A stretch of 64,000 bases of DNA from Chiloscyllium plagiosum (GCF_004010195.1 NC_057718.1:94150039-94214038); one strand, 5' to 3'. Positions 11,592-63,832 are shown, numbered from the stretch's first letter. Numbers and translations: made by a program. The notes: generated from the letters alone by a model not told the origin.

Positions 11592-12833
11592 TTAAGATGA
11601 GTTCATGATTGGTCTGGCATACACACCTTGGTAATAAGACGTGTCGTTGGCGATGGACGGTGGATCTAAGACGCCTTTAGAGCTCATGGGGAGGTTGGCG
11701 GACATGGGGGAGCTATAGTTAGAGTAATGCATCACTTGTTCGTAGGCCTTCAAGTCCATTTTGTGATGTTGCTGCTCGGAAGACATCAAGTTGTTGATTG
11801 AGAACGGGTGGTTGAACGAGTAGTGGTGCTCGGGTTTCAGATGATCCTGGCCTGGTGATGGGAGGTGGGACAGCACCGAGTGGTGCTGGTGCATCAGGTG
11901 AGGCGGGGGCGCCTGGCTGACCGATCCGTTCCCGTGCTCCGGGCTCAGGGTGGAGCTGCGGGACTTGAGGTCGGCCAGCGCTCGCTTCGACTCGCTTCCT
12001 CCTCCCCCACCACCGCCTCCACCACCTCCACCTCCTCCGGGAGAGCTGCCGGACTGGGGGGACTCATTCCCCGGGCTGGAGTCGGTACCGTTCCCGGCCG
12101 AGCAGCCCTCGGCAGACTTGCGACCGGCGTCCTGCTGCGAATTCTTGAGCGCCTGCTTCTTCTCGCACTTGAAGCGCTTCTGGCGCCTCAGGTAGCAGCC
12201 GTTCTCGAACATGTTGCCCGAGTCCGGGTGCAGGGTCCAAAAGGAGCCCTTCCCCGGTTTGTCCGGGGACCTGGGCACTTTCAGGAAGCAGTCATTGAAG
12301 GAGAGCGAGTGGCGGATAGAGTTCTGCCAACGTTGCTGGTTCTGACGGTAGAAAGGGAACAGGTCCATGATCCATTGGTAGATCTCACTCAGGGTCAGCA
12401 TCTTGCTGGAGGACTGCTGGATGGCCATGGTGATGAGGGAGATGTAGGAGTAAGGAGGCTTGGCGTGGGTGTAACTGCGGCGGTAGGTCTTGGGGTCTCT
12501 GGATCGGTTCAGGTTGGACTGGCCGTAGAGCGGGCTCATGCCCATGTTGGTGTAGGAGGTCAGGGCGTTCATGGACGTCGCCTGAGCGCTCATCGGACTC
12601 ATGCTGGGGCTCAAGGCGCTGCCCATCCCCGACATACCGCTCCCCATGCCATTCATCGCCCCCGCGCCCGGGGACATGCCGGTCATAGCTGGGCTCATGC
12701 CCGTGCCAACGTAGGACATGTTCATGGAGCCCGCTGTCATATTGGCGCTGGTGCCCATGGCGGACATGGTCATGTACGTGTTCATGCCGTTCATTCCAAT
12801 TCCCCCGTTCATATTGCTCACCGTGGGGTACCC
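11592..12833 (-). CDS. FOXA2: Forkhead box protein A2 (HNF-3beta), last coding exon (413 aa + stop)
   Basis: Acceptor ttcttatttcctgccctAG|GGG TAC CCC ACG GTG AGC AAT ATG. Contains the forkhead domain ([19 protein letters not shown]...[15 protein letters not shown]...[13 protein letters not shown]), the eh1-like [12 protein letters not shown], and C-terminus [16 protein letters not shown], which matches FOXA2 rather than FOXA1 (RPVLNTS). Confidence 0.97.
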
Positions 12834-12953: not shown

Positions 12954-13267
12954 AATGAAGCAAACTGCCCCATTCACTCATGAGAATCTTATTTTATAGT
13001 TGATTCTTCAATGAATAAAACTGCCCCACTCACTCATGAGAATCTTATTTTATTGTGGATTCTTCAATGAATCAAACCGCCCCACTCACTCATGAGAATC
13101 TTATTTTATTGTGGATTCTTCAATGAATAAAACTGCCCCACTCACTCATGAGAATCTTATTTTATTGTTGATTCTTCAATGAATAAAACTGCCCCACTCA
13201 CTCATGAGAATCTTATTTTATTGTGGATTCTTCAATGAATGAAACTGCCCCATTCACTCAAGAGAAT
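12954..13267. repeat. 56-bp tandem minisatellite (5 full units + partial) inside the FOXA2 intron
   Basis: C(T/C)GCCCC recurs at 12965, 13021, 13077, 13133, 13189 and 13245. Unit: AAACTGCCCCACTCACTCATGAGAATCTTATTTTATTGTGGATTCTTCAATGAATA. Confidence 0.97.
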
Positions 13268-17129: not shown

Positions 17130-17335
17130 TACAAAACCAAAAGAACTGCGGATGCAGAAACGAAATCGGGAGTTGCTGGACCAGCTCAGCAGGTCTGGCT
17201 ACACCTTTGTGATGAGAAATCAGAGTCAACCTTTCGGGTGACAATACCTCAGAATTGGGTGGACTCGAAACGTTAATTCTGATTTCTCTGCACAGATGCT
17301 GCCAGACCTGCTGAGCTTTTCCAGCTATCTCTGAT
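17130..17335. mobile_element. Palindromic Penelope-derived element (family C), decayed
   Basis: Inverted arms GCTGG..CAGCTCAGCAGGTCTGGC / GCCAGACCTGCTGAGCTTTTCCAGC, with hammerhead remnant GACTCGAAACGTTAA at ~17262. Confidence 0.65.
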
Positions 17336-22500: not shown

Positions 22501-23409
22501 TTGGGCCCAAGGGCCTGTGCCCGAAACGTCGAATCTCCTGTTCCCTGGATGCTGCCTGACCTGCTGTGCTGTTCCAGCAATAAAGTTTCAACCCTGTTGT
22601 TAGACCCCGTTATTGCAATGTAATGATCTATTATTAATTTTGGTGATTGCAATGCCTGAACATTCCTTGAACAATACTTGTTGAAATCTGTAGCAGTCTG
22701 AGGCTTTAGTTGCTGGGTGCTCTGAGCCCCATCTAGTGGTGTTTTTAAAGCACAGAAAGGCAGTTATTTCTATCGAAACATCACTATCGTGCCATTTAAT
22801 TCCACCATTCAGTTTTAACCAAAACATTTTGCTTTTGTTTTATTGCTTTGCAATTTTGCCATTGTCATTTTATTGTGTTTTTGTTTTTGAAAATGCACTG
22901 CACCAGCAAATAAAACTCTCCAGTTTTAGCTCTGCTTGGAATGGACTGACTTTCCAATGATGCACATGTGACTTTCTGAGTGCTGACCATTCTGAGTTGG
23001 TGGTTGTGGCCAGCATTCATAATGTCTGCAGAAGGGGACATCTTGATTCCTTCAGGGGAAAGCACGATGGGCCCAATGGCTTCATTCTGTGCCATAATAC
23101 TTCTGGTGATTCTGATGTACGTGGATATGAAGTTCTCACATGTTCGCAATGGCATACTGCTGTTTGCCCCGTTTGAAGAAAATAAAGTAAACTTGGACAT
23201 TACTACACTCCACATATAGTGAGGAGAGTACGCAGCATAATAAAAAGACTGAAGCTGCCAGGTACTGTTTCTTTTCGGGGAGAGATGAGGAGACATTAGA
23301 GTTGGTGCTTGCTCTGACTCCACACAATGAGGAAGATTGGTACAATCTAATTTCACACTCACTGTTATACTCTGGTAAACACATTAAATTGTCTTTGAAT
23401 GCACAATTC

Positions 23410-24439: not shown

Positions 24440-24690
24440 GCCAGGCAGCATCTGTGGAGGGAGAACAGAGTCAATGATTCAGGTCCAGTGACTTTTCTTC
24501 AGAACTGATTGTGACTAGGAAGAGATAGTCTTTTCATATATATTTTTTTCTAACTAGAATCAGTGCTGAGGAAAGGTCACTGGACCTGAAACATTGACTC
24601 TACTTTCTCCCATTGATGCTGTCAGAGCTGATGAGTTTCTCCAGCAATTTCTGTTCATGTTTCAGATTTCCAACGTCCTTTTGTTTTTTT
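24440..24690. mobile_element. Palindromic Penelope-derived element (family C) with two decayed hammerhead motifs
   Basis: Minus strand GTT-CTGAAGA-A-AAGTC-ACT-GGACCT-GAAT (24470-24505); plus strand CTGAGGA-A-AGGTC-ACT-GGACCT-GAAA-CATT-GAC (24566-24598). Confidence 0.7.
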
Positions 24691-25469: not shown

Positions 25470-25640
25470 GCAAAAGTGAAATACTGCGGGTGCTGGAAAT
25501 CTGAAATCATCACAGAAAAGGCTGAAGAAACTCAGAAGGTCTGGCAGCATCTGTGGAGAGAGAAACAGAGTTAACAATTTCGAGTCTAACGTGATCCTTC
25601 TTCAGAACACTTCCTTCTGAAGAAGAGTTATACTGGACTC
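25470..25640. mobile_element. Penelope-derived element (family C)
   Basis: Inverted CTTCTTCAGAA / TTCTGAAGAAG cores and a GGTCTGGCAGCATCTGTGGAGAG arm. Confidence 0.65.
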
Positions 25641-25652
25641 AAACTTTTCTTG

Positions 25653-25990
25653 GAAAAGCACAGCAGGTTAGGAGCAGGAAAATCGATGTTTCAGGTCGAA
25701 GCCCTTCATCAGGAATTGTCTTTGAATGCACAATTCATGGCTAAAGGGTTGGTTAGCTCAGTCAGGTGGGCAGTCGGTCTGATATACAATATACGCCAAC
25801 AAGTGGATTCAATTCGTGCATTGGCTGAGGTTACCGTGAAGGACTCTCCTTCTCAATCTCTCTGAGACTTGGCCAAGTCAGGAATCGAAATATCGATTTT
25901 CCTGCTCCTCAGATGCTGCCTGACCTGCTGTGCCTTTCCAGCAACACACTCTCAACTCTGATCTCCAACATCTGCAGACCTCACTGTCTC
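25653..25990. mobile_element. Palindromic Penelope-derived element (family A) containing a captured 165-bp genomic segment
   Basis: TSD-like CTCAA(A/G)CTTTTCTTG at 25638-25652 and 25991-26005; inverted arms; internal 25714-25878 matches 23387-23539. Confidence 0.8.
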
Positions 25991-26489
25991 CTCAAGCTTT
26001 TCTTGATTGTAATAAGTTTGCTTTTCAAATGAAGAAAAAGGAGTTAGATTGTAAAGTAAATACAAATTCCTTTACACTTACAGCTTGTTGACCATAATAA
26101 CATTCTACTTTCTGATTCCTAGGAGAAAGGCAGAGTGACAGATTTGATCATTCAGGATGGTCAGGACCTTAAATTATTGGCACTGGGTATAGTAGGTATA
26201 GGCATATTCTGTGACAATATGTGGAAATGATGACAGCTACCACATGGAATGTGTCACCAGAAATGTATACCTGGCACCCTACAGCAAGTTAGTCCAAAGA
26301 AACTATAAAAAATATCAAAGACTTCAACATTAAATGGTGACATGGGATATTTTACATTGATATTGTTATATTGGTGAAACCTGAATTGTTTTTCACTGCC
26401 AACAGGCCCTCAATTGATGAAAAAACAATTGTTTCTGGGCTGCCTCCAATTAACTGGTGGCTTCTGTGTCTTATGATCCTGCTCACAGC

Positions 26490-26612
26490 CATCTGATGAA
26501 GGAACAGCACCCCAAAAGCTAGTACTTCCAAATAAACCTATTGAACTATAACTAGTGTTGTGTGACTTTTAACCTTGTCAACCCCAGTCCAACATCAGCT
26601 CCTCCACATCAT
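26490..26612 (+). mobile_element. Penelope-derived element (family B), single decayed arm
   Basis: CATCTGATGAAGGAACAGCACCCCAAAAGCTAGT...TGTTGTGTGACTTTTAAC..CCCCAGTCCAAC. Confidence 0.75.
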
Positions 26613-29150: not shown

Positions 29151-32086
29151 AATTTATTGTTGTTGCTGAATTAGCGATCACTGAATCTTTACTCAGAACC
29201 AGAAAGAGGGCAGGACTGAAAGTAACCGTACAAAGCACTCATAGTGTTGTCCGTAGTAATTTCTCACTGATTTAATTTGTCATATGACCTGTGCTAGTTG
29301 CTGCTACAATGGCAGGAAATGTTTCATAGAAGATTTAACTTTTAGGTGGATGATACCCCACTGTGGAATATGCCTCACCAGAGCTTTCAATGCCAACATG
29401 GTTTAAATGAAGCTGACATCATACTGGGACAGATCCTCACAGACCAGTTCCACGTTCACATTGTGAGTGTTTGCACACATCTGAATTAATAGGTAAAATT
29501 TAAATTTGAATTCAAATAGTTTATAGTCACACGTATTTAATGTAAAATGCAGTGAAAAATGTAAAGTGTCAACATGCATCGGAAGCATTTTCAGTAGCTT
29601 AAAAAGTAAAAAAGATCATGAAAAATTAAAAAAACAAGATAACTTAAAGAGAGACTAACTTTCCACCATCGCCAATTGGCACCTCATCCACATCATCGCC
29701 AGAGAGCCGGTCTGGGGTTCACCATGCCAAGCCGTTGCCACAGTGCCACATCCTGGTTCACCAGCGGGCCAACTCTGTAGTCACTTTGCTGGTAGACCTC
29801 AGGCTCACAATGCTGTCTTTGCTCCAGCTGCCTCTGAAGCCACCACCACTCTGGACCCACCAAAGCCCACTTCCTATGGACTGAGCTCACCTCAGAAGGT
29901 AACTAGAAGCAAAAGCTAAACAAGGGAAAAAATAGATTGAGAAAAGAAGAAGAAAAGCAGACAGAGTGGACAAGCCCCAGGCTCAGGAACCCAGACACTG
30001 CCTACTCCGCCATTGCCATCTTAGAAGAGATCCATGTGTAATGGTGTTGAAATCTATCTATGGATTGATAGGCATGTATGTCTGTGTGCCTGTATGTCCT
30101 AATGTATATTTGTAGATCTATGTACATTTGTGCAGGAATTTATATACTCTCTTGATATGGTTAAAAGGAAACTTGACCCCAAGAGGGAGAAAGCAAGAGG
30201 AGGATCTCTTGATAGAATGAAGTGAAGTCGGATGGATGGAGTTTTATGTCACGTGTAGCCTGATTGAATTCAATGGCGTGTTTCTGTCCTGTAATTTCTA
30301 TGCAATGATGGCGTGCACTATCAAGATGTGAATCTGTTCTCGGGCAAGACGTCTTGGAATTTGACCTCAACAAACATCAAAGGGCTTTGTCGACCAATGA
30401 GCAGACAGCACCTGGCTTAAAATTTCTAAGTGCAAAATTCCCGCTTTTCTGGGCCGTTCCCAAGAGGCGTTATCCTCCTCTCAAGTCACTTTCTCACTTT
30501 TCTTTCTCATCAGTGCCATCTTCGTGCTGCCTCTGCAATCTGTAGTTGCTGACCCCTGGCTGCATCGTTCTGTCAACTTCTGCATTGATGTGAAAAAAAA
30601 AACACATTGACTTAAAGCGTGGTTTCTTTTTCATCTGCTCTTTCCTTGTGAAGAAACATTTGCTCCCCGCATTGGCACTGATGTATAACCAGAGTGCGAG
30701 TGTGATCTCTTGAGCAAATAATTCGGCACCCTCTGAAATTCTGAGTCAAATTTCCACACACGGGAAGTCCCAGAAGTCCTGCGAAAGTAGTGATTTCCGA
30801 ATGAGTTGGAGTTCTAACCAGTTCAGTCCATTAATAAACTGTCATCCCTGCAGACAGAAACAAGCAGATTAACTGGTGAGAATGATAATCAAAAACAAAA
30901 CGTTTGAACTCATGCGTAGACAGCGAGTACCCCCTCTCCCTTTAAATATAATGATCACAACAGTTACGATTCGGAGCACATTATTGCAGACCCTGGTATG
31001 TGTACTGAAAACATTAAATGCTGGAGATCACAGCTGACCAGGCAGCAATTGGTTAAAATTAGTATGAATTGCAGTTAGGTTGCAATAAAATGTTATCATT
31101 TGGAACCAGTGCTGTTTTCAGCACACACAAGTACTAGATTACCATGAAACTTATGAGTGAGAAAATTCGTATTAACCTTTTGTTCCAGGCTGATGATATT
31201 TTGTCCGACAACTGGGAGAGTTAAGAAAAATGTCTTAGCAGAAGAGCCAATTAATTATGAATTGCCTGCCTGCTCTTGGTTAATAAGTGCGATTCACGGG
31301 AAGGTAAAGGAATTGCGTTCCTCTGTGGCCATGTATTTAGCAGCTTTTTGGATCATTCAACTGCAGACTGAGAAAGAGCAAACATATGCCAGCAGGATGT
31401 TGGGAGGCTATTGTCTGAGAAATTGCAGAGTTAACAGCTCCCCTTTTACATGGGATTCCTGGGTTATGGTGTAGCTAGGACAATTAAAGCAATCTTCCGG
31501 TGCGAGTGAAAATATGTTCGAATAAAGTGAGAAGGGTACTGCTTTGGAATGCATGGTACTCTTACCAAACAATTCACCTTACATTATTTCAGACACCAAT
31601 GAACAAGTGGATATCAAAACTAATTCGCTCATTCAGAAATTGATTCACCTCAGAACATGTGCGATATTTCATGAATATGTTCAGGAGAAAATTGTCCAGC
31701 TGTGCCCACATATTCATGTTTTCATTCAACTTTATTGGATAAGGTGCCAGCATGATTGCTTTACAGATTGACAACTGTTGCAAATGATCATTTGTTTTCA
31801 AAAACATTTGACAATGTTGAGGTTAAACAAATGGGTTCTAGTGGAAGAATGAAGGGCTTATAGACTCTGTCAGATTGGTTTCCATGGTCTTTACATTGTA
31901 ATTGCATTTCAGTGACATTGGACAATAACTAACATTTAATGAGACTGATGAAACAACAACTGCAACATCCTGATGACTTCAGTCAGCACATTTATATTTT
32001 TTGGAGATGCCGGTGTTGGACTGGGGTGTACAAAGTTAAAAATCACACAACACCAGGTTATAGTCCAACAGGTTTAATTGGAAGCA

Positions 32087-32121
32087 CACTAGCTTTCGGA
32101 GCGTCGCTCCTTCATCAGGTG
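32087..32121 (-). ncRNA. Minimal type I hammerhead ribozyme motif
   Basis: CAC-CUGAUGA-A-GGAGC-GAC-GCUCC-GAAA-GC-UA-GUG: intact core with stems I and II paired. Confidence 0.75.
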
Positions 32122-32344
32122 GTCATGGAGAGCTCAATCCTAACCCACAGAATTTATAGCAAAAATTTACAGTGTGATATAACTGAAATTATACATTGAA
32201 AAATTGAAAAAAGTGAAACTATCATGGTATTCAAACAGATGAAAGACTCAACAGACAATCAATTTTTCAATGTATAATTTCAGTTATATCACACTGTAAA
32301 TTTTTGCTATAAATTGTGTGTGTTAGAATTGAGCCCTCCACTAT

Positions 32345-32379
32345 CACCTGATGAAGGAGCGATGCTCCGAAAGCTAGTG
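32345..32379 (+). ncRNA. Minimal type I hammerhead ribozyme motif
   Basis: CAC-CUGAUGA-A-GGAGC-GAU-GCUCC-GAAA-GC-UA-GUG. Confidence 0.75.
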
Positions 32380-32519
32380 TGCTTCCAATTAAACCTGTTG
32401 GACTATAACCTGGTGTTGTGTGATTTTTCACATTTATATTGGTTTTCACATGTACACTGATTAAAATAGATGCTACCTCATCTCCATCTCTCTTGCCTCC
32501 AGCACTGTTGCTAAATTAT

Positions 32520-38964: not shown

Positions 38965-39500
38965 GAGGGTAGTGTGGTAGACGTTGTCTAAATGGACTTT
39001 TGCAAAGCCTTTGCCAAGGTCCTGCATGGTGCGTTGAGTAAGGTTAAATCTCACAGAAGAAGGGCTCATGCCCAAAACGTCGATTCTCCTGCTCCTTGGA
39101 TGCTGCCTGACCTGCTGCGCTTTTCCAGCAACACATTTTCAGCTCTGATCTCCAGCATCTGCAGTCCTCACTTTCTCCTTAAATCTCACAGAATCCAAGG
39201 AGAGCTAGCCAGCTGGGTACAAAATTGGTTTGAAGGTAGAAGACAGAGGGTGGTGGTAGAGGATTGGTTTTCTGATTTCTGTCTTCTACTACCCCATGTC
39301 TTCTACCTTCAAGCCAATTTTGTATCCAGTTGGCTAGCTCTCCTTGGATTCCGTGAGATTTAACCTTACTCAATGCACCATGCAGTACCTTGGCTAAGGG
39401 TCCACTGTTATTTATCACACGATTTGGTTAAGAATTTAGGAAGTATAATTAGTATGTTTGCAGATGACACTAAGCTTGGTGGTATAGTGAACAGTGAAGA
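38965..39500 (+). mobile_element. CR1 RT fragment with an internal fold-back inversion and a family-A Penelope-derived insert (39059-39178, 15-bp TSD)
   Basis: MDFCKAFAKV.HG..WVQNWFEGRRQRVVV and MFADDTKLGG motifs; ~39282-39400 is the reverse complement of the preceding segment; TTAAATCTCACAGAA at 39044-39058 and 39179-39193. Confidence 0.85.
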
Positions 39501-42420: not shown

Positions 42421-42668
42421 TGTTTTCAAAATATTTAATCCAAATCGCAAATCCTTCGTTCTCCTCCTCTGTTCAAAGTTAAAAATCACACAACATCAGG
42501 TTATAGTCCAACAAGCTTGTACTTTCAAATAAACCTGTTGGACTATAACCTGATGTTGTGTGATTCTTAACTTTGAGCAGAGGAGAAGAACGAAGGATTT
42601 GAGATTTGGATTTAATATTTTAAAAACAACCCAGTCCAACAGCAGCACCTTCACATTTGTCCTCTGTT
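42421..42668. mobile_element. Family-B Penelope-derived hairpin including an inverted copy of its own flank
   Basis: 42421-42513 pairs with 42536-42628; TCCTCTGTT at 42465-42473 and 42660-42668. Confidence 0.85.
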
Positions 42669-46502: not shown

Positions 46503-46715
46503 CGAAAGTGAGCACCGCAGATGCTGGAGATTAGAGTCAAGAGTGTGATGCTGGAAAAGCTCAACAGGTCAGGCAGCATCCGAGGAGCAGGAGAATTGAT
46601 GTTTCGGACAAAAGCCTTTCATCAGGATGAAGCTCATTTGCCCGAAATGTAGATTCTCCTGCTCCTCTGATGCTGCCTGACCTGCTGTGCTTTTCCAGCA
46701 ACACACTCTTGACCC
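46503..46715. mobile_element. Palindromic Penelope-derived element (family A)
   Basis: Arms GCTGGAAAAGC..GGTCAGGCAGCATC.GAGGAGCAGGAGAAT / ATTCTCCTGCTCCTC.GATGCTGCCTGACCTG..CTTTTCCAGC; minus-strand CTGATGA-A-AGGC-TTTT-GTCC-GAAAC. Confidence 0.85.
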
Positions 46716-50756: not shown

Positions 50757-50928
50757 GTTACTGCAGATGCTGGAATCTGTGCTGAAAACATAAACTGCTA
50801 GGGAGAAAGCAGGCAGCATTCATGCAGAGGGAGCAAGCTAATGTTTCGAGTTGAGGTGACTCTTCATCTGCTCTGATAAAGACTCATCTCGACTTGAAGC
50901 GCTGGCTTGCTTTCTCTGCACATGGTCT
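50757..50928. mobile_element. Palindromic Penelope-derived element (family D), decayed hammerheads; a related arm lies at ~36785-36900
   Basis: Minus strand CAGATGA-A-GAGTC-ACCTC-AACTC-GAAA-CATT-AGCT; plus strand CTGATAA-A-GACTC-ATCTC-GACTT-GAAG-CGCT-GGCT. Confidence 0.65.
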
Positions 50929-52130: not shown

Positions 52131-52258
52131 ATTCCTGATGAAGGGCTCTTGCCCGAAACATCGATTTTCCTGCTCTTCGGATGCTGCCTGACCTGCTGTG
52201 CTTTTCCAGCACCATTCCAATCTAGACTCCAATCTCCAGCATCTGCAGTCCTCACTTT
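52131..52258 (+). mobile_element. Family-A Penelope-derived arm starting with a hammerhead motif (52131-52166)
   Basis: ATTC-CTGATGA-A-GGGC-TCTT-GCCC-GAAA-CATC-GATT. Confidence 0.8.
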
Positions 52259-52609: not shown

Positions 52610-53178
52610 TGCTCATTCTCCGTCTGCGCCACATCTAGACCATTCTCTGCCTGTAGCAAGTCTAGTTTATTGTCTGACTGTGCCAAGTCTAGACCATTCT
52701 GTGTCAGTGCCAAGTTTAAGAGAAAGTGAAGACTGCAGATGCTGGAGATCAGAGTCGAGAGTGTGGTGCTCGAAAAGCGCAGCAGGTCAGGCAGCATCTG
52801 AGGAGCAGGAGAATCGACGTTATGGGCAGAAGCCCTTCATCAAGGTTGATGAAGAGCTTATGCCCGAAGTGTAGATTCTCCTGCTCCTCAGATGCTGCCT
52901 GACCTGCTGTGCTTTTCCAGTGCCAAGTCTAGGCAATTCTCTGTCTGTGCAGGTCTAGTCTATTGTCTGACTATGCGAAGTCTAGTCCATTCTATGTGTC
53001 TGTGCCAAGTCTAGACCATTCTCTGTCTGTGCCAAGTCTAGTCCATTCTATGTGTCTGTGCCAAGTCTAGTCCATTCTATCTGACTATGCCAAGTCTAGT
53101 CCAATCTCTGTCTGTGCCAAGTCTAGTCCATTCTATCTGACTATGTCAAGTCTAGACCATTCTCTGTCTGTGCCAAAG
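52610..53178. repeat. ~27-29-bp tandem repeat interrupted by a palindromic family-A element (~52720-52918)
   Basis: Unit TGCCAAGTCTAG(T/A)CCATTCTCTGTCTG. Confidence 0.88.
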
Positions 53179-54513: not shown

Positions 54514-55220
54514 ACCATCCAAGGGCCGAAACAATCTTTCCAGCCGAAGCAGCATTTCACCTGTACCTCCTCCAATCTTGTGGACTGTATTCGCTGCACC
54601 CTGTGTGGCCTACTCTACATTGGAGGAACCAAGCACAGACTGGGTGATTGCTTTGCAGAACACCTCCGGTCTGTGTGCAAGCATGACCCCCCACCTTCCC
54701 GTAGCCAGTCATTTTAACACAGGCGTCCTGCTGGCATGCTCCACGTGTCTGTCCTCAGAATGCTGTAATGCTCCAGAAAAATCACAGTGCAAAGCAGAGG
54801 AGTGACATCTCGTCTTTATTCAGGACACTTTACAACCTTCTGGGCTCGATATTGAGTTCAACACCTTCAGATTAGTGAGCCCAATCCTTCCCTTTCTTTT
54901 AGCTTTGTTTGTTATGTTCTCTGTCAACCCCTTTGCCCTCTCTTCATGCCAGTGGGACTGTCCGTTCTTTCCAATCTGGCAGTGAGACACACCATTGTTC
55001 TGCCATTCTCACATTCTGATCACTCAATTTGAACTATCAATATCCTTTCTCCTCCCAGCACTCCAACAGCAACCCCCCCGCCAACGATGTAGCATAAGTG
55101 CTGCCCCCTCCACACTTCACTTTAGTTCTGATGAAATCATCTAGACTCAAAACATTAGCTTGCTCTCTATTTGTGGATCCTGCCTGACCCATTGTGGTCT
55201 CCAGCAATTTTTGCTTTTAG
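54514..55220 (+). mobile_element. Penelope-like element 3' part: GIY-YIG endonuclease pseudo-ORF (54514-54871), 3' UTR and decayed hammerhead (55124-55160)
   Basis: Manual translation: TIQGPKQSFQPKQHFTCTSSNLVDCIRCTLCGLLYIGGTKHRLGDCFAEHLRSV, then (after frameshifts and stops) LPVASHFN..KAEE*HLVF..TLQPSGLDIEFNTFR. Confidence 0.85.
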
Positions 55221-58768: not shown

Positions 58769-59012
58769 TGAGAAAAGGAACAGGAAGTGATTTCAACACA
58801 GGAAATAACATCACCACAGGAAATGACAACTCCAACTTAAAGAACCCCAAACATATAAAGAGAAAGCAGGAATTTCCAGCATTGCTTCGCCTGAGGTCCA
58901 CTGAAGATGTTACTTAGTAAGGTAACGAAACACCTGGGAATGAACATTCCAGCTCACTGAGCAAACCTACATCCAAAACCTCAACCTGAGCTACAAATCT
59001 TCTCAAAGCTCA
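58769..59012 (+). mobile_element. Penelope-type 3'-end insertion (family E) inside Gypsy pol, 10-bp TSD, hammerhead-like motif at 58898-58937
   Basis: TGGTTAACAC at 58759-58768 and 59013-59022; CCA-CTGAAGA-T-GTTAC-N8-GTAAC-GAAA-CACC-TGG. Confidence 0.75.
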
Positions 59013-62000
59013 TGGTTAACACAGTTTTTAGGCTGTCAAATGCCTTTTGACAGTCCACTGTCCACTGAAACTTCTTGCCCTTTTTTAACAATTCGGTGAG
59101 TGGAGCAGCCACACCGCTAAAGTTCGGCGCAAACATTCGGCAAAATCCATTCAATCCCAGGAACTGTAGTACTGCTTTTTTCATTGGAGGTGTGGGAAAT
59201 TCCCCAATTACTTTTGTTTTCACATCGCGTGGGGCCATTTGTCCATGTCCAATAACATGGCTCAGGAAGGTGACTTGGACTTTGGGAAATTCACTTTTGC
59301 TATGTTTACCATCAAGCCTGCCTTCCAAAGTTGGTCACACAGCTGATAAATGGTGTAAGTGTTCCTTCCATGAGTGACTAAAAATCACCAGGTCATCAAT
59401 GTAAACAACACAAGTGGGTAATCCAGCAAGGACCTTATTAGTCGGTCTCTGAAATGTGGCTGGAGCATCACTTTGTGGCATCACTTTGAACTGATATCTT
59501 CCATTTGGCATTATGAAAGCCTTTGATCTCTCTGACAGAGGTACTTGCCTGCAGCCTCTGAGCAAGTCCAACTTAGAAATGTAAATTGCTTGTCCCACTT
59601 TTTCGACACAGTCCTCCAACCGTGGAATTGGATATGCATCAGTCTCTGTAACGGCATTGACTTTGCGATAGTCCACACATAACCATTGGGTACCATCTGG
59701 CTTTGGCACCATGACTATGGGTGAGCTCCTGTCACTGTAACTCTCTTTGATTATGCCATCTTAGAGCATGCGCTGTATCTCCTTCTGAACCTGTGCCAAC
59801 TTTAGAAGGTTATGCCTCGAAGATCATTTAGATTTTCTTGTGGAAGGTAACTCAATAATTTATCCCAATTTTTGACAAATTCCTCATTGTCCAATTTGAT
59901 TTGAGGAATGTCCAATTCAGAATCCTCTGAACCTGGTTCTTCCTTCTTTACTGCAATCATTAACACCTTCTTCTCTTGCTTTCCTTCCCTATCAAAATAC
60001 CTTTTGAGCATATTCACATAACACACTCTGTGAGATTTCTTCCTGTTTGGAGTCCTTATCAGGTAGTTCGCCTCACTCAATTTCCTCTTAATTTGATGCG
60101 GTCAATTAAACCTGGCTTTTAAAGGCTCACCTGTTACTGGGAGTAGCACCAATACCTTATCCCCAATTGCAAAATTGCAAATTCATGATTCCATGTCCGC
60201 TTCCTGTTTCATTGTATGCAGTGATATTTTTAAATGCTGTCTAGCTAACTCTCCAGCTCTAGTTAATCATCTCTAAAATTTGTCACATTGTCCAAATGGG
60301 TGATCTCTGAATTCTGCCTTATTAATTCCTCCTTAATCAATTTTAACGGTCCTCTTACTTCATGCACAAAAACTAATTCAAATGGACTGAATTTGGTCGA
60401 TTCATTTGGTGCATCTCAGATCGCAAAAAGTACAAATGGAACTCCTTTATCCCAATCATCTGGATAATCCTGACCATAAGCCCTCAATATGGTCTTTAAT
60501 GTTTGATGCCATCTCTCTGGCACTCCCTGAGATTCCGGATGGTACGCAGTGGATTTGTATTGCTTTAATCCCAAGTTATCCATAACCTCCTTGAATAGAA
60601 ACTTATTCCCACTTCTTGTTTGAGGTAGGGGACCTATGCAATCAGTCAAGACTCTTGTGAAAGGTTCCTTAAATGTTGAAATAGGTATTAAAGGTGCAGG
60701 TTTTATTACTGCCTGTGGTTTTCCGATTAGCTGACATGTATGACGTACCTGGCAAACTTTCACTATATCCTTCTGTAGTCCAGGCCAGTAAAAATGTCTT
60801 TGCATTTTAGCCTGTGTTTTCCTCACCCCTAAATGACCTCCAAGTGGTAGCTCATGCACCACTCGCAGCACCTCCTTTCTATACCCTACTGGCAAAACAA
60901 TTTGATGAATCTCTGCCCATTTCTCATCTACTTGAATGTGTGATGATCTCCGTTTCTTCATTAAGACATAATTTGTTAGTAGTAACACACAGGGATGCAT
61001 TCACTCTCCTTCTACATATATGCCTTTCAATATAACTGTTTTAACTTCTCATCTCGCTGCTATAAATCAATAAACATAGCAGAGCTAAAGATACGTGCAT
61101 GTTTATCTAGTTGCTCCTGCTCTGTCCCAGTTATCTGATCAAAAAAAGTCCCTGATACCTTTTGATCTCTCCTGCTTCAACCTGTGCCTCTGTGATCTTG
61201 TGATCACACAGTCTGGGAAAATTCCTGAATAAACATCCTTCATTTCTTCAGTTGCCTGCATCTCCACTGGCTTTTCAACTAGAGTAGGCAGCACGCCTAC
61301 TGGTGAATCAGCTATATCATTTACAAGGACAAATTGTATTCCTGGAGCTGAGAGTTTTGTCCAGTACTCCTACCACAAATTCTTCACTCTTCTCTGGACT
61401 CTCTAGCCTCACTTTACATAATGGAGCACTTTTGTCTCACCATGAAATCCTTTTACCAGTACCTTTTCTGGCAAAAGTCCCTCTCAGGAGTACATATCTC
61501 CTCATCCCTCACCATTACGGACTGAGAGGATCCTGTGTCCCTTAATATTGTAACCTCTTTATCTGCTAATCTTGGTCAGTGTGAATACAATTTACTCTTG
61601 CGTGTATATTTTTTAAACAGATCTGGTGCTTCTTTCTTAATCAACCTCTGATCATCTTGTACACTCTGAGGCAGTTGTCTAACTTCCCTTGTGTTTTTTG
61701 TTACTCGTCCAATAGAACTCCCAGGTTTGTCTGGTTTTCCTACATCTGGCTTTGCCCTAGCCCACCAACTCTGTGATTTCACATGGCCCACTATATTACA
61801 ATGAAAACACTGGAGCTTTTTTACTTCTTCGTCCCCCTCAAGGGTTTCTTTTTTACCCTGTGGCAAGTTATCCTTATGATCTTCATTGAGATCTACCTGT
61901 CCCTTTTCATGTGAGGATTTCTCTTTGCCCAATTTCTATCCGTCATGAACTGAAATTGACTCTGGAAGCCAAACCAAGTTTTATGGACCAACTCATAATC

Positions 62001-63287: not shown

Positions 63288-63496
63288 AAAGTTTAAAAAT
63301 CACACAACGCCAGGTTATGGTCCAACAGGTTTATTTGGAAGCACTAGCTTTCGGAGCACTGCTCCTTTATTAGGTAATTGTCAACCACCTGATGAAGGAG
63401 CAGCTCTCCGAAAGCTAGTGTGCCTCCAAATAAACCTGTTGGACTATAACCTGGTGTTGTGTGATTTTTAACTTTGTACACCCCAGTCCAAATACA
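63288..63496. mobile_element. Palindromic family-B element, 8-bp TSD
   Basis: TGCTGTAT at 63280-63287 and 63497-63504; inverted arms. Confidence 0.88.
63386..63420 (+). ncRNA. Minimal type I hammerhead ribozyme motif
   Basis: CAC-CUGAUGA-A-GGAG-CAGCU-CUCC-GAAA-GC-UA-GUG. Confidence 0.72.
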
Positions 63497-63692: not shown

Positions 63693-63832
63693 TTAAAAAT
63701 CACACAACACCACCTGATGAAGGAGCGACGCTCTGAAAGCTAGTGTGCTTCCAATTAAACCTGTTGGACTATAACCTAGTGTTGTGTGATTTTTAATTTT
63801 GTACACCCCAGTCCAACACTGGCATCTCCGAA
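63693..63832. mobile_element. Family-B element with a short inverted arm, 13-bp TSD
   Basis: TCAGTTGACTCAG at 63680-63692 and 63833-63845. Confidence 0.88.
63711..63745 (+). ncRNA. Minimal type I hammerhead ribozyme motif
   Basis: CAC-CUGAUGA-A-GGAGC-GAC-GCUCU-GAAA-GC-UA-GUG (G-U at the base of stem II). Confidence 0.68.

Follow-up and report, generated by a model that had tools for sequence, protein, structure and literature searches.

Minimal type I hammerhead motifs in the 3' ends of five Penelope-like element families of the shark Chiloscyllium plagiosum, predicted to cut only as pairs

The closest described relatives of the motifs studied here are the minimal hammerhead ribozymes (min-HHRs) that Cervera & De la Peña (2014; PMC4209133) defined in the pseudo-long terminal repeats (pLTRs) of Penelope-like elements (PLEs) and across the genomes of invertebrates, fishes, coelacanth, Xenopus and reptiles. 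In that study it was reasoned that helix III and loop 3 are dispensable in a dimer, and a base between positions 9 and 10.1, a G10.1-C11.1 pair and palindromic positions 15.2-16.2 were described as emergent features; a monomer showed no cleavage, and dimers and trimers cut weakly. Further dimer tests of PLE hammerheads by Lünse, Weinberg & Breaker are cited in a review (PMC6765202), and it has been reported that the hammerhead of the Anolis Poseidon element (PAc) is assisted by protein and that insertion in vitro does not require the ribozyme (Frangieh et al., 2024; PMC11167929). PLE-derived hammerhead repeats have also been reported in the one chondrichthyan genome covered by a preprint on non-LTR retrozymes (bioRxiv 10.64898/2026.07.22.740005). 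In this study, we analysed a 64,000-nucleotide (nt) stretch of C. plagiosum DNA (GCF_004010195.1 NC_057718.1:94150039-94214038), referred to below as the window, and in particular the locus at 31987-32440, after a first-pass annotation had noticed hammerhead-like repeats of five families, A to E, in it.

We consider it very probable that these motifs are minimal type I hammerheads carried by the pLTRs of five PLE families, that they would cut only as pairs in tandem transcripts of the element, as is predicted from their architecture, and that the scattered copies, the one at 31987-32440 among them, are likely inert truncated insertions. A type I hammerhead without a loop III, a palindromic stem III, covarying stems and a Penelope-like origin had all been put forward in the first-pass annotation and are supported by the data presented below. 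Its description of a new or distinct ultra-minimal form does not stand, since exactly this min-HHR is defined in PMC4209133, where the dimer model for a stem III with zero loop is also already published. The ribozyme form has thus been known since 2014, the five families described here are further natural variants of it, and the catch itself therefore adds little.

All of the stretches listed in the annotation were present in the window with their positions and strands correct. A min-HHR descriptor (stem I of at least 3 bp, CUGANGA, an optional extra base, stem II of at least 3 bp, GAAA and N-[0-4]-N-U-H) gave four matches in the window, all of them family B, compared with a mean of 0.03 across 100 dinucleotide shuffles:

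32087..32121, minus strand, intact family-B minimal hammerhead, predicted cut after A17 at 32090
32345..32379, plus strand, intact family-B minimal hammerhead, predicted cut between 32376 and 32377
63386..63420, plus strand, family-B hammerhead copy, stem II of 4 bp with a C.U mismatch at its top
63711..63745, plus strand, family-B hammerhead copy, G.U at 10.1-11.1

The copy at 32345-32379 is laid out as a 3-bp stem I, CUGAUGA, an extra A, a 5-bp stem II, GAAA, the palindrome AGCU and A17, and the copy at 63386-63420 is accompanied by an antisense copy at 63293-63380. Intact copies in the window are found in family B only; no window copy of families A, C, D or E passes the descriptor. When the same descriptor was applied to 60 evenly spaced 10-kb stretches of the genome (582 kb without N), it returned 13 matches, against 0 or 1 in each of 10 shuffles, and all 13 have the extra base, a loop III of length zero and no insert, which bears out the loop-less palindromic stem III. 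A chance origin of the motif is ruled out by the shuffles together with the reversed controls, which gave 0 matches.

The five repeat families are real, as each of them recurs genome-wide and its 30 best genome loci align along the motif. CUGANGA and GAAA with U16.1 and H17 are the commonest letters in all five families. Exactly one extra base between A9 and G10.1, as had been claimed, was found in 73 of 78 cores with a stem II of at least 4 bp (1.16 Mb); this unpaired base is an A in families A-D and a U in E. The 10.1-11.1 pair is most commonly G-C in A, B, D and E. G-U is the commonest form in the intact-core copies of family C, yet C11.1 is present in 28/47 unbiased copies, which is consistent with CpG decay. 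The palindrome reads AGCU in family B and ACGU in the other four. While the reconstructed consensuses of families C and D agree with the genome copies, two stem lengths needed correction: stem II of family E has 7 bp rather than 5, and stem I of family A, given as 4 bp, is in most copies (88/129) just 2 bp followed by U.U. An Rfam scan up to E=10 returned 21 matches, none of them a hammerhead family, so that the comparison with Rfam models foreseen in the annotation yielded no hammerhead; the matches to miRNA models in the window are long inverted repeats.

The claim that stems I and II differ between families and still keep pairing was borne out by natural copies with an intact core (A 129, B 66, C 30, D 9, E 41). 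When the commonest letter is taken at each position, 37 of 40 family-by-position cells hold a Watson-Crick pair. Shuffling the 3' letters among families gave a mean of 17.6, and 37 was reached in none of 100,000 shuffles; this shuffle ignores kinship, and families A, C and D share downstream sequence. Within family E, pair 2.3-1.3 is C-G in 26, G-C in 9 and U-A in 5 of the 41 copies, and pair 10.3-11.3 is U-A in 26 and C-G in 9. At the centre of the palindrome, family B has G-C where the other four families have C-G, which amounts to one swap.

The locus at 31987-32440 is a single insertion, in which two inverted, truncated family-B ends lie inside a target duplication. Its parts are as follows:

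31987..31998, plus strand, 12-bp target-site duplication, left copy (2 matches in the window, 0.04 expected)
31999..32207, minus strand, inverted 5'-truncated family-B PLE 3' end (pLTR), carrying an extra tail of ~35 nt
32205..32428, plus strand, family-B PLE 3' end (pLTR), sense arm, matching the repeat downstream of reverse transcriptase-endonuclease (RT-EN) frames in 20/20 loci fetched by PLE protein
32429..32440, plus strand, 12-bp target-site duplication, right copy

The arms of the inverted repeat (32032-32207 and 32259-32434) agree at 94% over 176 nt. The ~35-nt tail, located at about 32000-32035, is absent from the other arm and matches the sequence past the pLTR in another family-B locus, L047. 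The plus-strand RNA of the locus folds as one hairpin (-294.6 kcal/mol) with each motif paired to its antisense copy. As the RNA of either strand consists of one motif plus an antisense copy in a long hairpin, the locus cannot form a dimer in cis; this possibility was rejected because the two motifs are on opposite strands and each pairs with the antisense of the other.

The five families are the 3' ends, or pLTRs, of PLEs. A first-look search of the genome with a protein piece beside a B copy gave 31,753 candidates, and 20/20 stretches fetched around matches to that protein carry the B repeat, most of them with long RT frames. RT and a GIY-YIG/CCHH-type EN are found within one frame in the family-B loci L043 and L058. 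The B-linked frames match RVT_1 (2/3 above the Pfam cut-off) and an A-linked frame matches Pfam GIY-YIG, while the B-linked EN pieces were recognised through their motif and their similarity to the A-linked EN. RT and EN pieces are present in order for family A (L063, L069) and are also present for family D (L164/L160, L165), and for families C and E the linkage evidence is the EN pieces seen there. In L047, two direct B repeats with motifs at 1335 and 4773 (3.4 kb apart) surround an interrupted RT frame, the ATG of which is located 121 nt after C3 of the first motif; two direct pLTRs around an RT frame were seen for family B only.

With 87 natural EN pieces combined into a profile, we found a same-strand family copy within 1 kb after 89 of 97 EN ends (A 20, B 32, C 6, D 15, E 16) and an opposite-strand copy after 9, where the 97 ends comprise all fetched DNA and many loci had been fetched by motif. 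In the unbiased stretches alone, 24/28 EN ends are followed by a same-strand copy and 2/28 by an opposite-strand one, in agreement with the Penelope-like origin proposed at the outset. An EN is located within 1 kb upstream of just 21/236 motif copies, and most copies are therefore short truncated ends. A CX4CxxC linker precedes the EN in A (L069) and B (L058) and was not seen in E (L143); on the clade reading of this linker taken from PMC8557442, the split may point to Neptune/Nematis-type elements for A and B and Penelope/Poseidon-type elements for E. We also observed inverted back-to-back PLE-B copies with RT frames facing away from each other in L053 (G000:C5:34415000-34422000), L044, L059 and L054, a full-size version of the inverted arrangement that is typical of PLEs.

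With a loop length of zero, stem III cannot close within one copy. In a transcript of the type pLTR-open reading frame (ORF)-pLTR, the A15.1-N-N-U16.1 palindromes of two motifs would instead pair as a shared 4-bp stem III, the two paired copies would exchange their stem I partners, and each core would cut its partner after H17. The two motifs of an active tandem element would be spaced by one unit on the same transcript, and cleavage at both sites would set free a unit-length RNA with 5'-OH and 2',3'-cyclic-phosphate ends. These steps are inferred from the published tests of the same architecture (PMC4209133). The reaction would be weak and probably dependent on the protein of the element or on a chaperone. 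Selection would have worked on the source elements, not on inserted copies, which would explain the covariation between families.

Genome-wide, 12,186 exact intact B motifs and 69,589 intact A motifs were counted, and reversed patterns gave 0. The family profiles detected 255 motif-covering copies (A 123, B 55, C 50, D 5, E 22; reversed control 0) in 120 stretches totalling 1.161 Mb. Scaled to 3.56 Gb, this corresponds to ~780,000 copies including decayed ones, an estimate that is rough, as the sampling was confined to large contigs. An antisense copy is present within 300 nt for 108/255 copies; a same-strand copy is found for 0/255 within 300 nt, 14 within 1 kb and 58 within 4 kb. There are no tandem arrays at any motif copy in the window, and a retrozyme or satellite origin was rejected on this ground and on that of the missing same-strand neighbours within 300 nt.

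The core is intact in 93/236 unbiased A, B, C and E copies and core plus palindrome in 59/236, and G12, which lies within a CpG, is changed to A in 55/236; of the unbiased family-D copies 0/5 are intact. We compared altered positions in core and flank for the same four families, with D left out (5 copies) and flank columns with a top letter under 80% also left out. The expectation that the core is better kept than its flanks held for A positions. C positions are worse kept in the core (45/230 altered vs 198/2061 in the flank), and there is no difference for T (29/466 vs 149/2423) or G (32/419 vs 128/1441). Selection on single copies was rejected given these mixed signs in the base-matched comparison.

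RNA data were taken from one raw poly(A) single-cell run (X21) of one sample, of which ~2% was sampled and for which the species match is by label alone; a second run of the same sample contributed 0 reads on the locus. At 90% likeness, 2,027 reads fell on 32210-32470, mainly on the sense strand of the element and from many copies, so that the poly(A) reads belong to many family-B copies and are not tied to 31987-32440 itself. They mark the following feature:

32388..32428, plus strand, family-B poly(A) region, with AUUAAA at 32388-32393, the addition site at 32405-32408 and a GU-rich stretch downstream

Poly(A) begins after 32405 in 307 reads and after 32408 in 381 (688 in total), ~30 nt past the predicted cut, and the sense depth drops from ~1,037 to 316 at this site. 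The hexamer is present in 108/124 genomic B copies (AUUAAA 73, AAUAAA 35). As 0/124 B copies continue A-rich past the site, the tails were added to RNA, and genomic A-tracts were rejected as a source of these reads. No fixed-position poly(A) hexamer was found in families A, C, D and E. The captured family-B RNAs are uncut.

The poly(A) site behind the B cut site gives cutting a concrete and testable job, and it suggests that family-B repeats are able to end host transcripts. We put forward, as a speculation that is unlikely but worth stating, that the dimer-dependent hammerhead of family B serves as a copy counter ahead of a used poly(A) site, which separates a one-motif mRNA from a two-motif template. 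With one motif, an RNA would retain its signal and tail, which lie 11-32 nt beyond the cut site, and act as mRNA, and a read-through RNA with two motifs would be cut, lose its tail and become a template of unit length that can be circularised. As a side effect, the ~170,000 dispersed B ends would sow working poly(A) sites through the genome. A poly(A) signal behind a PLE hammerhead was not found in the literature searched, which was largely open-access: the term 'polyadenylat' is absent from the text of PMC2377424, and no such signal is described in the portions of PMC4209133 examined.

Several observations weigh against the reading as PLE hammerheads that cut as pairs and leave inert dispersed copies. 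In a nearest-neighbour model, which takes no account of tertiary contacts or Mg2+, two strands never had the double hammerhead as their lowest-energy fold in any of 12 sequences, and the dimer fold of intact copies (families A, B, C and E) was 0.3-5.1 kcal/mol above two monomers (11.5 kcal/mol for B with longer flanks); such marginal energies would fit the weak activity published for the class. Core A positions are somewhat better kept than those of the flank (46/1163 vs 81/1131 altered, p=0.001), which slightly weakens the pure neutrality of the copies. The B-linked EN pieces gave no Pfam GIY-YIG match. There is no pile-up of read ends at 32376/32377, where depth is flat (964/983/1080), in a poly(A) library that would miss cut products. 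Lastly, the anole hammerhead cut only in the presence of protein and left no RNA-seq ends (PMC11167929).

This last case, in which endonuclease-dead PLE protein also supported the cut, leads to the best-surviving alternative, tentative but to be taken seriously, that the ribozyme is protein-assisted: the RT-EN protein would fold the motif or join two copies, also in trans, and RNA alone would form no useful obligate dimer. The marginal computed energies of the dimer fold speak for such assistance; however, protein-free dimers and trimers cut at a low level and monomers did not (PMC4209133), and the palindrome survives a C-G/G-C swap between families, which would be needless for a monomer folded by protein. 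Protein assistance is compatible with pair-dependent cutting and shifts only the source of the activity.

It appears distinctly doubtful that the motif is kept for a role other than cutting, such as protein binding or RT priming, or simply rides along, with no cleavage in vivo. Insertion in vitro works without cleavage (PMC11167929), Naiads without an HHR proliferate well (PMC8557442) and uncleaved polyadenylated reads span the site, but a full catalytic core with U16.1, a non-G at 17 and G10.1-C11.1 is kept across five families that seem to span two PLE clades and in which the stems have been replaced. We consider a functional system at the level of the host, in which >80,000 intact motifs on dispersed copies pair in cis or trans and cut host transcripts, very improbable: the exact B and A counts, the ACGU that A, C, D and E have in common, the polyadenylated family-B RNA in one run and the same-strand, same-family copies within 4 kb (58/255) would favour it, but both G12 and the palindrome are hit by CpG decay, the antisense copies within 300 nt would sequester the motif, the interface of only ~10-12 bp is energetically not favoured and, as a weak test, no RNA ends were seen at the cut site. 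The abundant working ribozyme system envisaged in the annotation is accordingly not upheld, given the low share of copies with core and palindrome, the frequent G12 change, a core that is not consistently better conserved than its flanks and close neighbours that are mostly antisense. Pair-dependent cutting by source elements, with dispersed ends that are likely inert, remains our preferred reading.

The window holds 33 family-profile matches and hence more decayed copies than had been listed. Apart from the B copies given above, they include the following, together with a PLE endonuclease remnant:

17172..17328, both strands, truncated family-C copies forming an inverted pair (profile matches)
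22509..22534, plus strand, family-A copy, truncated within the core, no CUGANG
24562..24600, plus strand, decayed family-C copy, with an inverted copy at 24442-24508
25565..25610, minus strand, decayed family-C copy
25681..25716, minus strand, family-A copy with decayed stem II and palindrome
39059..39085, plus strand, family-A copy, truncated, without CUG, G12->A
50810..50920, both strands, decayed family-D copies forming an inverted pair
52131..52166, plus strand, family-A copy, palindrome broken (ACAU) through CpG decay
54547..54723, plus strand, PLE GIY-YIG endonuclease remnant (tblastn E 2e-10; profile E 2.3e-21)
55124..55160, plus strand, family-D copy, G12->A and a short deletion
58898..58937, plus strand, family-E copy, 7-bp stem II, U16.1->C

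The family-C copy at 24470 has GAAU in place of GAAA, and the EN remnant lies ~400 nt upstream of the family-D copy at 55124..55160. A very decayed frame (26250-26573, plus strand) contains YCYIGET, which is followed ~120 nt further on by a B-like copy at 26486; the EN profile gave it no score. Inverted PLE ends at 42421-42628, 46536-46713 and 24459-24611 form further short inverted repeats, and a fourth short inverted repeat is located at 39179-39363; two of these four explain weak matches to Rfam miRNA models. The conserved stretch shared by A, C and D, 15-50 nt past the motif (52167-52210 of the window in A), ends in a pyrimidine run and CAG and by eye resembles a branch point and splice acceptor, and a similar acceptor-like stretch, again judged by eye, directly precedes the motif in family E. 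Introns in the pLTR are known for PLEs.

The window also contains an intact 413-aa frame (11592-12833, minus strand) with Forkhead_N, Forkhead and HNF_C domains, which is a FoxA/HNF3 gene; the hammerhead locus is ~19 kb upstream of it. A broken LTR-retroelement remnant (59335-61000, minus strand) matches RVT_1 and an integrase zinc-binding domain. Tandem arrays were observed at 12954-13267 (56-nt units), which adjoins the FoxA frame on its upstream side, 193-399 (36-nt) and 52920-53176 (29-nt).

Compared with known systems, the shark families share with the min-HHRs of PMC4209133 the zero loop 3, the short helix I, the place in the pLTR and the presence of several consensus families per genome, and there too most copies are single and truncated, with close pairs on opposite strands. 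In the supplement of that paper a Nematostella motif is near family A, and A17 is present in a Xenopus and a shrimp motif. Copy numbers given there are 4,000 for coelacanth and 9,000 for Xenopus, compared with >80,000 exact and ~780,000 extrapolated copies here, although the methods differ. The text and searchable supplement of PMC4209133 mention no cartilaginous fish ('shark' 0, 'Callorhinchus' 0), and we found these shark families in no paper of the largely open-access literature searched. The hammerheads of Lünse et al., as cited in PMC6765202, are likewise small and PLE-linked, with a very short palindromic stem III, and are reported to act as dimers. The locus at 31987-32440 itself shows the 5' truncation, inverted truncated copy and one-sided tail of PLEs described in PMC8557442.

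Poseidon PAc (PMC11167929) resembles the elements described here in being a vertebrate EN-bearing PLE whose pLTR carries a hammerhead, in its tail of 30-40 nt and in the lack of cut ends in RNA-seq, but its ORF begins inside stem II, whereas the family-B ATG is 121 nt after C3. The high copy number and the near-intact young elements make the shark families well suited to asking if PLE hammerheads are active in vivo and if this activity requires the protein of the element. Non-LTR retrozymes (bioRxiv 10.64898/2026.07.22.740005) also carry PLE-derived type I hammerheads, for which that survey likewise applied a minimal model; they are tandem units each with a hammerhead, whereas the copies here are dispersed PLE ends with no covering tandem array. 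Finally, in the mammalian Clec2 3'-UTR (untranslated region) hammerhead (PMC6765202), the cut site is placed after the stop codon and ahead of the poly(A) signal, which is lost on cutting, and the predicted cut site of family B likewise precedes a poly(A) signal; the Clec2 ribozyme is gene-borne, discontinuous and monomeric, while family B is a retroelement end predicted to need a partner.

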